A DNA stretch of 9,703 nucleotides from a virus. Lineage: Duplodnaviria > Heunggongvirae > Uroviricota > Caudoviricetes. The stretch lies in the IMG/VR virus record IMGVR_UViG_2690316187_000001. One strand, given 5' to 3'. Every line of letters begins with the position of its first letter. The stretch's first letter is position 1. The position numbers are program-made. Of this stretch, positions 6,001-9,000 are shown piece after piece.

Positions 6001-9000
6001 GGGTATTCTAAGCCCCTTAACCTGAAAAGCTCTTCATAATAATCAGCAGGAAATGTTGTAATATAAGGTTGAATTTCCTTTGCGACAAAGGCCTCGAGTA
6101 TTTTGGCGAGCGCATCTTTTTCTCTATCTCGCTGGTACCCCGTCGCTTCATCAACAAGCGCTATTATTCCGACTTTAGCTAATGAGCGCACCAGAATTTC
6201 AGCTTTCTTGGCTGTCTCTAACTGGTTTGGCCTGGTGATAGCGCCTGCCTCTCTTGCCTTTAAATAAACATCGCAGACAAGAGGTATTATGGATGCGTCA
6301 TAACCTTCCTGGACGGAGCCAGTAATCGTCTTGTATTTGACCTTATTGATCACATCCATAACATCTTGATTTATATATTTTTTAAGGTTTGCAGCATCCA
6401 TAAAAGCGGGCATATTGATCACCCCCTCTTCTTGAGGTGCTCTACCCCCTCTTTGTGGTCGGCCAAATGCTTTAAAAACAGAAGCTTGTGATATGATACG
6501 CCGTCCATTTTCGAGAACCGCGACATCTAATTCCGCATCACCGATCTTTAACTTTCCCTCATTCGCAGATACGGGCAATAAAGCTTTTTCTTTTTTTGCG
6601 GCAACAGCCTTTCTTGAGGATTCTTTTCTTTGCTCTGCTGTCATTTTTGCCGCGCGTGCCTTACCGCCTTTGGCCTTCCCACTAACATCATCATTTTTCA
6701 TGAGCATATCTCGTGTTGTGATTGATAAGTCAATCATACACATGCACGTTGTAACGTGCAATATTTAAATATGCACGTAAATTGCGAATCAGATAATGAG
6801 GAGACTTTCTCCCCCTTGCACTGACATCATGGTATTCTGCTCAAAACTAAATTTCTGGAGCGTTTCGTTGGAAGGTATTTGCAGTTTTCGCAGATTATGT
6901 CGGTGATGCTTCGTCGCTGTCGTCTCATTCGTACCTCCTGTCGGTAAATCTGACACCCTGACCAATAGCCCAGGCTGTTGTGTACTCGATCAGACTTGCC
7001 ATACGCTTCACGCTCATCTGCGCGCTGCTTTCGCGAATGTTGACGTATTCGCCTTCAAGCCCGGGCAAAACATCAGCTTCCTGCTTTGTTGCCACTGCAT
7101 GACCGCTAATCAACAAAACCTTCCATTGTTCTGGTTTTAACCACTTATCGCACCATTGAACCTGACGTGCGATATCCGCCAGCATCGCGTGAAATTTTGC
7201 GTTCTGGTCAAGGTTGCGCTTGTAGTCAGTAATGCGGATGGTGACTGGCTTGTCTTTATCGAGAGGAGTTGCGAGGATGGCGTTGATTGCGGCTTGCTGT
7301 TGTTGCTTAGTTCGGAGGAAGATTGTTTGCTTCATCGTTACTCCTTCACTTTGACTTCAGCGGCTATGATGGCTTTCATCACTGCAATTACCGTTTTGTC
7401 CTTCCCATCCTCATGCCCCATCGCATAAGCGCCTTCTTCGCCACCTTTCCAAAAGTTGTCATTCGATTCGGGCCAGTCGATATCCAGTTCAATAGCTGCT
7501 CGCGATGCCTGCCACGTTTGCCAGTGGCCTTGAACATCGTCCATCACGTATTGACCACCAATATTACCGCTGCCAATTTCATGGTGATTTTCAGGGTAAC
7601 GGATAAGGTCTGAGGATTCGCCTCCACGTCGCAACCAACTTTCTTCAAACTGCTTTCTTGATTCGTCCATCGATACTTATCCTCAGTTCAACTCACAAAA
7701 CGCCACGCCATTTTTGCTACAGCGACAGGCGCAACACCGATAATCACCCACAGGAGAATGCTACCGAAAAGCACACCCACCAGGTCTTTACCTTCGCCTA
7801 CCAACCGGACAAAACTTCCGACAACCGCAATGAACGTCGACACCATCCACATAGCACCGAGAATCCTCAATGCAGAGAAAATTAACTCAGCCACGATTTA
7901 CTCTCCCCCAAATAAAAAGGCCTGCGATTACCAGCAGGCCTGTTATTAGCTCAGTGATGTAGATGGTCATCTTTTAACTCCATATACCGCCAATACCCGT
8001 TTCATCGCGGCACTCTGGCAACACTCCTTAAAAATCAGGTTCGTGCTCATCTTTCCTTCCCGTTCTTCCTTGGTAGCAAACCGGTAATACACCGTTCGCC
8101 AGACCTTACCTTCGATAACCAGAAGACCTGCCCGTGCCATTTTAGCCGCGGCCTGATTTATGCTGGTTACTGTTGCGCCTGTTAACGCGGCAACGTCCGG
8201 CGCACAGAAGCTATTATGCGTCCCCAGGTAATGAATAATTGCCTCTTTGCCCGTCATACACTTGCTCCTTTCAGTCCGAACTTAGCTTTAATTTCTGCGA
8301 TCTTCGCCAGCGCCTGAACACGATTTAGAGGTCTGCCGCCCATGACAGGAAGTTGTTTTACTGGTTCAGGTATCGTCTCACCACGGTTAATTCGCGCTGT
8401 CATACAGGTCAGTTCATCGGCAGCCTTACGGCGTAATTCCGCATCAGTAAGCGCATTGGCCCGCATGTTCTGATACAGGTTGGTGACCAGCCAGTAGTGC
8501 GCGTTTGATTTCCACGGATAAGACTCCGCATCCGGATACAGGCCACGCTTCCGGCAATACTCGTAAACCATATCAACCAGCTCGCTGACGTTTGGCAGTC
8601 CGGCGATAACGGATGCTTCTTCCCGGCACCATGCAACAAACTGCCCGGGAGATGGCAGAAATGGTCGATTCTGCCGACGGGCTACGCGCATTCCTGCGTT
8701 AACCTGTTCCATTGTGGTGATCCCGTTTTCCCGGAAAGCCAGAACCCACTGGCGGCGGATTTCGTTCAGTTCGTTCTGGTCACGGTTAGCCAGGCTCGCC
8801 GGGAAAGTTGCCAGTAACTGGCTGAACACACCGTTGATGATCTGCGCTACCTGCTGTACCTGCGGCTTTTCGTCGTACTGTTCCGGCATGTTGTTGGCGA
8901 TCCGACGCATCTGCTCACGGTCAAAATTAACCATCTGTGCGGCGATGTTTTTCATAAATCCACCCCGTAAATCCAGTCAGTGTTTGTCAGGTCGAGTTTT

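Follow-up and report, generated by a model that had tools for sequence, protein, structure and literature searches.

Directly behind the tR2 terminator of a prophage resembling phage lambda, at the point where lambda itself starts ninB, two small genes are found: ORF68, which encodes a membrane protein of 68 aa, and ORF110, which encodes an acidic protein of 110 aa. Are these the two halves of one functional module, or are they separate genes that share a site? The question was addressed in a stretch of viral DNA of 9,703 nucleotides (IMG/VR record IMGVR_UViG_2690316187_000001), hereafter called the window, and in phages and prophages that carry both genes, one of them or neither.

Organization of the region behind tR2

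The window is a lambda-like E. coli prophage; it shares 100% identity with one from this species in which the genes run O-P-ren-[ORF68-ORF110]-NinB...Q. All the window genes concerned are encoded by the minus strand. Ahead of the terminator, ren (7967..8257, 96 aa) is the final gene in common with lambda; it is named 'protein ren' in RefSeq and matches PHROG 142, 'Ren-like exclusion protein' (E = 2.5e-40); its 3' end has no mismatch with the lambda sequence. The intrinsic terminator tR2 (7908..7941, minus strand) consists of a stem-loop, AGGCCTGC-N8-GCAGGCCT, followed by a T-run. It was recovered by a terminator scan (8-bp stem with 6 G-C pairs, T-run), and RNA folding gives -25 kcal/mol with z = -2.5. 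The same sequence is present in lambda and HK022, and an identical one is labeled tR2 in the HK620 record.

The ribosome-binding site GGGGGAGAG (7901..7909, minus strand) lies 6 nt 5' of the GTG codon of ORF68 and is, by alignment, the ninB ribosome-binding site of lambda. Across the ren 3' end, the tR2 stem-loop and the block TTTGGGGGAGAG, a single mismatch separates the window from lambda. The split starts 1-3 nt past TTTGGGGGAGAG: lambda goes on with GGAAGTCATG, the start of ninB, and the window with TAAATCGTG, the start of ORF68 (7688..7894, minus strand). A 17-nt spacer, ACTGAGGATAAGTATCG (7671..7687, minus strand), holds the GAGG ribosome-binding site of ORF110 (7338..7670, minus strand). 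NinB (6925..7335, minus strand), a divergent allele of the Orf-family recombination mediator, begins 2 nt past the ORF110 stop; it matches the Pfam NinB model (E = 4.2e-54) and is 38% identical to lambda NinB. The anatomy proposed in the initial annotation is correct: tR2 and the ribosome-binding site are kept, and behind them come a GTG-initiated two-helix membrane protein, the acidic protein of 110 aa and a NinB that has diverged. The description as a two-gene insertion is correct only relative to lambda, and the comparative data show two separate cassettes.

The order O-P-ren-tR2-ORF68-ORF110-NinB-...-NinH-Q places both genes in the pR operon, which runs from the replication genes to Q, past tR2. 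No coding-strand promoter was found from ren to ninB by a crude consensus scan, which could miss a weak or non-sigma-70 promoter. Because no promoter of their own is predicted, and because the genes are tightly packed in the pR operon past tR2 (gaps of 17 nt between ORF68 and ORF110 and of 2 nt between ORF110 and NinB), they would be delayed-early products, their synthesis starting with N-driven read-through of tR2 in lytic growth or on induction. In a quiescent lysogen, as far as the crude scan can tell, they should not be made. In lambda, every gene past cro needs antitermination by N, and a phage deleted for the entire nin region still forms plaques (PMC10695390). Lambda has neither ORF68 nor ORF110; by analogy with the other nin genes, both are probably dispensable for plaque formation.

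On the opposite strand, a promoter-like site at 7837-7864 (score 9/12) was considered as the antisense promoter of a type I, hok/sok-like system. It is an unlikely candidate: sites of this kind are no more frequent than by chance (two in the region vs. 1.6 expected), and neither the HK620 nor the SPN9CC allele keeps its -10 hexamer.

ORF110 and its exchangeable modules

The product of ORF110 (WP_052924745.1, 'hypothetical protein' in RefSeq) is an acidic, soluble protein with a pI of 4.76 and 22 acidic vs. 12 basic residues. It matches PHROG 343 (E = 2.5e-28), and PF26207 is precomputed on 119 of the 120 homologues listed; both are families without an assigned function. Compared with a full-length homologue of 92% identity, dN/dS is 0.2. 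In the AlphaFold2 model, residues 1-58 reach a pLDDT of ~95, residues 69-90 stay below 50, and a helix spans residues 89-103. Structure searches revealed no structural relative and no fold match to a known inhibitor.

Residues 50-61 (WQTWQASRAAIE; 7488..7523, minus strand) form a conserved hinge, the point at which N- and C-terminal modules are exchanged. Its residues W53, S56 and R57 are invariant among 41 homologues. Elsewhere, the N module of the window is joined to 8 or more types of C module, and its C module likewise occurs behind 8 or more types of N module; among 124 proteins, there are at least 30 N-module and 20 C-module clusters. ORF110 is built of a conserved helical framework and two variable modules, which reassort freely.

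This exchange can be followed in known phages. Genes 58 and 59 of HK022 (AUM59826.1, 68 aa, and AUM59827.1, 105 aa, both 'hypothetical protein') sit directly past the same tR2 hairpin and ribosome-binding site, with the same GTG start. The HK022 ORF68 is 88% identical to that of the window, and at the DNA level the identity is 96% across ORF68 and on into ORF110 for ~60% of its length, until about the hinge, beyond which the sequences diverge. The C-terminal module of gene 59 is unrelated to that of the window, the overall protein identity being 65-69%. Further differences in HK022 are an extra gene ahead of ninB, a P gene of the DnaB type and the lack of ren upstream. For orf29 of VT2-Sakai and its homologues in 933W-type Stx phages (92 aa), the C-terminal module is the shared one (residues 50-109 of ORF110, 82% identity). 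These genes occupy the same P-to-ninB interval, but their N-terminal module is another one, and an 89-aa orf28 is located ahead instead of ORF68.

A profile search retrieved 2580 ORF110 relatives across Enterobacterales; none of those listed bears a functional name. An exhaustive HMMER search of 1.8 billion representatives gave 23 matches, the non-phage ones being only weak matches to the HAMP-repeat linkers of fungal histidine kinases. These matches, repeated and confined to residues 31-56, were judged to be motif-level chance.

With low confidence, it can be suggested that ORF110 is a binding protein, its variable modules keeping pace with a target that itself varies, in the host or in other phages, as in a counter-defence role. 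A more specific version, in which the helical scaffold and its two fast-evolving, recombining modules block a host immunity protein and ORF68 is unrelated, is unlikely. The extreme modular diversity around invariant framework residues would fit such a counter-defence protein, although it may merely be the product of recombination at conserved nucleotide linkers. The protein is also small, acidic and sited where early expression is expected, its relatives are spread over the Enterobacterales, and the VT2-Sakai slot carries a Lar-like restriction-alleviation gene as well. Nevertheless, ORF110 resembles no known inhibitor in sequence or fold, and its C-terminal module is poorly modeled (pLDDT < 50).

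Presence and absence of the two genes

On near-identical P-ren-tR2...NinB backbones, four states are encountered: lambda has neither gene, and other phages have ORF68 alone, an ORF110 relative alone, or both. In 29 of 80 ORF68 loci, ORF68 runs straight into ninB with a gap of 6-7 nt, an arrangement whose carriers include the isolated phages HK75, HK629 and mEpX1. Reciprocally, ORF68 is missing from 13 of 74 loci that have an ORF110 relative, and most Stx1a phages likewise have such a relative but no ORF68. One such locus, L149, has the same ren and a NinB that is 98% identical. Among sequenced phages, 107 records contain ORF68 and 143 an ORF110 relative, with an overlap of at most 49, a ceiling derived from per-organism match counts and equal to 46% of the former and 34% of the latter. 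In IMG/VR as a whole, ORF68 is present at 227 loci and an ORF110 relative at 296.

ORF68 precedes the ORF110 relative in 61 of the 74 loci of a sample whose ranking is biased towards close relatives of the window. The two are usually separated by a 17-nt spacer; where they are direct neighbors, the offsets fit this length in most loci. Some functional link is possible from this pairing; synteny within a single slot, together with the ranking bias, explains it equally well.

The boundaries of the genes are conserved. The GGGGGAGAG block serves as a left recombination linker as well as a ribosome-binding site: it precedes ninB in lambda, ORF68 in the window, HK022, HK620 and SPN9CC, and the ORF110 relative in L149. 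The right linker, AAAGTGAAGGAGTAA (7338..7352, minus strand), contains the final ORF110 codons and stop, and the AAGGAG ribosome-binding site of ninB. Its 13-nt core closes the ORF110 relatives of HK022 and L149 and is also present at the boundary of two other genes in VT2-Sakai. Cassettes are swapped at short conserved boundaries with a second role as ribosome-binding sites; the left one is TTTGGGGGAGAG and the right one AAAGTGAAGGAGTRA. The conserved WQASRAAIE hinge within ORF110 is a third exchange point beside the two linkers. The slot directly past tR2 is a mosaic position, holding ninB itself, ORF68, an ORF110 relative or both.

Tight packing, linkers common to unrelated genes and mosaic presence or absence, the marks of the nin-region pool, are all found here. 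This pool has been estimated at 30-50 genes for the lambdoid phages, with ~10 per phage (PMC5630979, citing Juhala et al. 2000). The favored reading, with a probability of roughly three in four, is that ORF68 and ORF110 are two independent nin-region cassettes with delayed-early expression and do not form an obligate pair. They would be separate accessory genes, taken from the common nin pool of lambda-like phages, and not one module.

The initial annotation had compared the arrangement to toxin/antitoxin and exclusion modules. ORF68 would then be a small membrane toxin and ORF110 its soluble antidote, or the two would form a two-component exclusion or abortive-infection module, like GhoT/GhoS. 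This is very unlikely, even if the sizes and types of the proteins are suitable (a two-helix membrane protein of 68 aa beside an acidic soluble protein of 110 aa), many phages have the genes side by side with a constant 17-nt spacer, and ORF68 is so often the upstream neighbor. The obligate co-occurrence expected of a toxin-antitoxin pair is not seen in the compared loci, where each gene is found alone in the numbers given above, and the ORF110 module beside a given ORF68 varies freely. Furthermore, no promoter of their own was predicted by the crude scan, and neither protein matched a toxin, antitoxin, holin or defence model: searches against Pfam, NCBIfam and PADLOC gave nothing at E <= 1. 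The Pfam result extends to GhoT, provided that a model of it is in the library. The likeness to GhoT/GhoS is a functional analogy, a small two-helix membrane peptide beside a soluble protein of ~100 aa. In GhoST, the antitoxin gene precedes the toxin gene; here, on the contrary, the membrane protein gene comes first, and the two genes are not obligately linked. Of the initial interpretation, the anatomy is kept and the linked module, whose genes assort independently, is given up.

ORF68 and its possible role

ORF68 (WP_072128920.1, 'hypothetical protein' in RefSeq) is predicted to encode an inner-membrane helical hairpin, with a pI of 10.0 and a GRAVY of +1.47. In the hydropathy profile, a conserved GKD turn parts two hydrophobic stretches. 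The AlphaFold2 model, computed from a shallower alignment without the divergent alleles, has a pLDDT of 91 and shows a helix at residues 2-33, a turn, and a second helix at residues 38-67. The protein is thus modeled as a conserved 68-aa hairpin of two hydrophobic helices. It matches PHROG 1165 over the full profile (E = 1.2e-34, residues 1-68 on positions 1-68 of 68) and, marginally, PHROG 14570; both families are without an assigned function.

The length is fixed at 68 codons, with no indels or stops, down to 43% identity. Against the HK620 type, dN/dS is 0.36, and against the SPN9CC type, 0.23 (43-53% aa identity, dS 1.1-2.0); for close relatives, the ratio is 0.8-1.7, a range that results from only 5-14 substitutions, mostly swaps among I, L, V, A and M. 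A GTG start behind the matching terminator and ribosome-binding site is found in 78 of 80 ORF68-related loci, and the SPN9CC-type gene starts with ATG. In the ORF68 loci having upstream sequence, the ribosome-binding site is kept, with few single-base variants. The charged residues K/R10, K36, D37, K61 and R65 are conserved amid the hydrophobic background. Close copies are present in 414-527 of 5426 complete E. coli genomes, roughly 8-10%.

Because both genes match PHROG families, show dN/dS values below 1 and a conserved frame, and are called as coding sequences by PGAP, ORF68 and ORF110 are judged to be real genes, beyond chance ORFs. The statement that neither could be assigned to a known family no longer holds, given PHROG 1165 for ORF68, PHROG 343 for ORF110 and PF26207 on ORF110 relatives. 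It was correct in that neither belongs to a family of known function, be it in Pfam, NCBIfam, PADLOC or PHROG: the profile searches led to PHROG families, but not to a function, and the structure searches not to a relative of ORF110. The alternative named in the initial annotation, that both proteins match conserved nin-region proteins, is largely borne out by HK022 58/59 and by unnamed genes of mEp, Stx and P22-like phages. These relatives are conserved and functionally uncharacterised; the two genes occur in many E. coli and Salmonella prophages of the lambda type.

A 'NinA' feature is listed under an ORF68 match. NinA of P22, HK620 and SPN9CC has a neighboring site at tR2, first in the nin region, but it is an ORF of 27 aa that overlaps tR2; in P22-like phages, this is where the helicase gene ends. 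In the loci of HK620 and SPN9CC, ninA extends from 1425 to 1508, and the ORF68 homologue, unannotated in HK620 and 'hypothetical' in SPN9CC, is the next ORF (1501-1707). As this homologue starts where NinA ends, ORF68 is not NinA.

With the two genes taken as independent cassettes, ORF68 may insert into the inner membrane so that its two termini face the cytoplasm. There, it may target a membrane function of the host or keep out the DNA of competing phages early in infection, a suggestion that is only tentative. By functional analogy, T4 Imm and HK97 gp15 are likewise small phage proteins with predicted inner-membrane segments. T4 produces Imm early in infection; HK97 gp15, a moron, is expressed from the prophage by signals of its own and differs in this from ORF68, for which no promoter is predicted. 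Searches of Pfam, PHROG and PADLOC gave no sequence or profile tie between ORF68 and the characterised superinfection-exclusion proteins T4 Imm, HK97 gp15 and P22 SieA.

A function in lysis timing, as a holin- or antiholin-like protein, is highly improbable. Two helices, a length of 68 aa and a predicted N-in/C-in topology do resemble class II holins, like the one of phage 21. However, ORF68 is part of the early operon, ~8 kb from a lysis cassette in which the prophage already has a class II holin and a lysozyme, and no holin model matched it. Moreover, the C-terminal tail of holins is long and strongly charged, whereas that of ORF68, KMAWRFVS, has just 8 residues and a net charge of +2. Least probable of all is that ORF68 is untranslated and conserved for a nucleic-acid function downstream of tR2, which would fit the GTG start, the missing annotation in HK620 and the high nucleotide conservation of close relatives, but not the uninterrupted 68 codons of the divergent alleles with their dS and dN/dS values, the ATG of the SPN9CC type, the ribosome-binding site conserved at the right spacing or the charged residues kept in a hydrophobic background.

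Both genes were already catalogued, as RefSeq hypothetical proteins and PHROG families, and their distribution is ordinary nin mosaicism; a literature search by accessions, PHROG identifiers, PF26207 and the topics of nin, membrane and exclusion found no functional study. On comparative grounds, the toxin/antitoxin reading can be dropped. A bolder and quite unlikely idea is that the ORF110 family represents a shuffled early protein, a conserved three-helix scaffold whose two hypervariable modules recombine at the hinge to track variable host immunity or membrane targets, with the often adjacent ORF68 as a partner or membrane anchor in some phages; if true, lambda-like phages would have, in the tR2 slot, a counter-defence hotspot not recognised before. 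The natural variants with neither, either or both genes on near-identical backbones are ready material for tests of function. Finally, ORF110 offers a clear case of module exchange within a gene at a conserved hinge, which may point to a diversifying binding function.

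Organization of the region behind tR2

The genes of the window lie on the minus strand. Several E. coli chromosomes carry a prophage 100% identical to it, with the gene order of a lambda-like delayed-early right operon. In one of these, NZ_CP148578.1, the order is O, P, ren, two 'hypothetical proteins', NinB, a NinE fragment, a P63C-domain gene, a KilAC antirepressor, a YbcO/DUF1364 gene, RusA, NinH and Q. Alignment with lambda shows a single mismatch through the end of ren, the tR2 stem-loop (an intrinsic terminator detected both by a terminator scan and by folding) and TTTGGGGGAGAG. 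Past this sequence, lambda enters ninB at its ATG, whereas the window continues with TAAATC-GTG, the GTG opening the 68-codon ORF68 (7688-7894, minus strand). A 17-nt spacer leads to ORF110 (7338-7670, minus strand; 110 codons, pI 4.76), and 2 nt past its stop begins a NinB allele (Pfam, E = 4e-54) with 38% identity to lambda NinB. The anatomy proposed in the initial annotation, i.e., tR2 and the ribosome-binding site followed by a 68-aa gene, a 110-aa gene and a divergent NinB, is accurate.

Further downstream, the 355-aa P63C-domain gene (5694-6761, minus strand; PHROG 2384, E = 2e-146) has a lower GC content (41-43%) and is preceded by a truncated NinE pseudogene at about 6851-6928 (RefSeq annotation), which suggests that an insertion disrupted ninE. 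Directly downstream of the Q antiterminator, in the slot occupied by the Shiga toxin genes in Stx phages, lies a low-GC block (2141-3143, minus strand; 33-41% vs. about 50% around it). It encodes an apparently multi-spanning 252-aa protein, without a match in Pfam or PADLOC, followed by a 52-aa DUF3927 protein, and looks like late-operon cargo. By the annotation of the matching RefSeq record, a SASA-family carbohydrate esterase gene occupies the left end of the window (1 to about 1841, minus strand), which contains most of it; this gene runs off the window end and is hence omitted from the ORF list.

The two protein families

ORF68 matches PHROG 1165 across all 68 positions (E = 1.2e-34). The predicted protein has a conserved GKD turn between two hydrophobic stretches, and the charges K/R10, K36, D37, K61 and R65 are conserved. 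AlphaFold2 models it as two helices (2-33 and 38-67) joined by a turn (pLDDT 91); by the positive-inside rule, both termini would be cytoplasmic. The GTG start, the terminator and the ribosome-binding site are the same in 78 of the 80 loci best matching ORF68 in IMG/VR. Divergent alleles keep exactly 68 codons without any indel: 53% identity and dN/dS 0.36 (at dS 1.1) in HK620, and 43% identity, an ATG start and dN/dS 0.23 (at dS 2.0) in the P22-like phage SPN9CC. Of 5426 complete E. coli genomes, 414-527 carry close copies, which are annotated as coding sequences. A search of 185,579 species-representative genomes yielded only five loci, two of them in Escherichia and three in MAGs assigned to unrelated taxa. 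The latter (79-90% identity) lie on short contigs that are labelled Cellvibrionaceae, Bacillota and Collinsella but were most likely misassigned and stem from enterobacterial phages. The family is thus restricted to lambda-like phages of enterobacteria.

In GenBank, the full-length, GTG-initiated HK620 homologue (AF335538.1, 12378-12581) is unannotated, and the one of HK630 is under-called as a 52-aa ORF. A tiny 'ninA' feature overlaps the start of the HK620 homologue and can mislead automated naming; NinA itself, in HK620 and SPN9CC, is encoded by an ORF of its own (27 aa) that spans tR2, and the identification of ORF68 as NinA was rejected.

ORF110 matches PHROG 343 (E = 2.5e-28), and its relatives bear a precomputed PF26207 tag. 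Compared with a full-length homologue of 92% identity, dN/dS is 0.2. In the AlphaFold2 model, residues 1-58 (pLDDT about 95) form a helix (3-14), a short helix, a hairpin and a further helix (44-56); residues 69-90 fall below a pLDDT of 50, and a C-terminal helix spans 89-103. Residues 31-56 (window 7503-7580), EIGSGNIGGQYVMDDVQGHWQTWQAS, give weak, repeated matches to linkers between HAMP repeats (EVGTEGKLGGQAVVKDVAGTW) in three large fungal hybrid histidine kinases, with 6-9 stretches per protein and a summed E-value as low as 1.7e-10, probably a chance similarity at the motif level.

Mosaic junctions and independent assortment

The left junction of the insertion consists of the tR2 T-run and GGGGGAGAG. 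The gene right after it differs by phage (an ORF110 relative, ORF68 or ninB itself), and the breakpoints all fall within a few nt. The right junction, AAAGTGAAGGAGTRA, corresponds to the last codons of ORF110 and holds the ribosome-binding site of the next gene; in VT2-Sakai, its core lies at the boundary of two other genes. A third junction is internal to ORF110. Conserved blocks at the N-terminus (MDESRKQFEE), the hinge (W..WQASRAAIE, with invariant W53, S56 and R57) and the C-terminus (AIRAAGIKVKE) frame segments that are swapped wholesale. HK022 DNA, for example, is 96% identical to the window over ORF68 up to the ORF110 hinge; beyond it, similarity returns only in the last ~25 nt. When the modules of 124 family members were clustered at 50% identity, the N module of the window paired with at least eight C-module types and its C module with at least eight N-module types, in a cross-shaped table that partly reflects search bias. 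Further combinations occur in the locus sequences (e.g., L036 and L158).

ORF68 and ORF110 are not a two-gene module. Among the 80 best IMG/VR matches to ORF68, a sample biased to close relatives of the window, ORF68 runs into ninB after only 6-7 nt in 29 loci; an ORF110 relative comes next in about 43, and in the remainder a different gene follows or the sequence stops short of ninB. In the similarly biased ORF110 sample, ORF68 is present in 61 of the 74 loci with enough upstream sequence and absent from 13. All four combinations are found on closely related backbones. Lambda has neither gene. Loci such as L042 and L048 have ORF68 only, with a NinB 99% identical to that of the window. L149, with a lambda-type P and ren and the same tR2, carries only a 95-aa ORF110 relative (C-terminal half 97% identical) before NinB (98% identical), and the window has both. 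Sequenced phages give a less biased bound: ORF68 occurs in 107 records (including 48 Stx2a and two Stx1a phages) and ORF110 relatives in 143 (including three Stx2a and 38 Stx1a). Summing the smaller count per organism class, the two share at most 49 records (≤46% of ORF68 and ≤34% of ORF110-relative records). Such an overlap is hard to reconcile with an obligate toxin/antidote relationship, and the toxin/antitoxin or exclusion pair suggested initially is unsupported.

Stx phages fill this slot with further small cassettes: between P and ninB, VT2-Sakai and L025 have an 89-aa orf28, a 71-aa ORF, a 62-aa ORF and a gene for Lar-like restriction alleviation. Small early accessory genes thus have a general hotspot behind tR2. 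The nin region has been described as a pool of 30-50 non-essential genes that are tightly packed and exchangeable, about 10 per phage (PMC5630979, PMC8022706, PMC10695390), and the mosaic seen here fits this picture.

Expression and possible roles

Lambda genes past cro are read by N-modified polymerase (PMC10695390). As no promoter was predicted on the coding strand from ren to ninB, and as both genes are packed behind tR2 with spacers of 17 and 2 nt, ORF68 and ORF110 should be delayed-early genes transcribed only by N-modified polymerase. A promoter-like site (7837-7864, plus strand; TCGACA, 16-nt spacer, GAGAAT; 9/12 matches) lies opposite the 5' part of ORF68 in antisense orientation. The region has no excess of such sites over shuffled sequence, and divergent ORF68 alleles have not kept the -10 hexamer.

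Neither protein has a match in Pfam (a copy without PF26207), NCBIfam or PADLOC. Relatives of ORF110 (23 by exhaustive HMMER search, 2580 by profile search) bear no functional name among the matches listed, and the literature search found no paper mentioning the accessions or families. Tentatively, ORF68 may form a hairpin in the inner membrane and act early in the lytic cycle on a host membrane function or on the DNA entry of competing phages; on its own, ORF68 could have an exclusion-type role. ORF110 may, equally tentatively, be a soluble scaffold that uses its two variable modules to bind a variable target. A holin function of ORF68 is unlikely: the charged tail is absent, the gene is located in the early operon, and the prophage already has a class II holin and lysozyme of its own.

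With HK022 genes 58 and 59 as reference copies, ORF68 and ORF110 are long-catalogued conserved hypotheticals. Apart from the shuffling of modules inside ORF110, which is of mild interest, the insertion represents ordinary lambdoid mosaicism.
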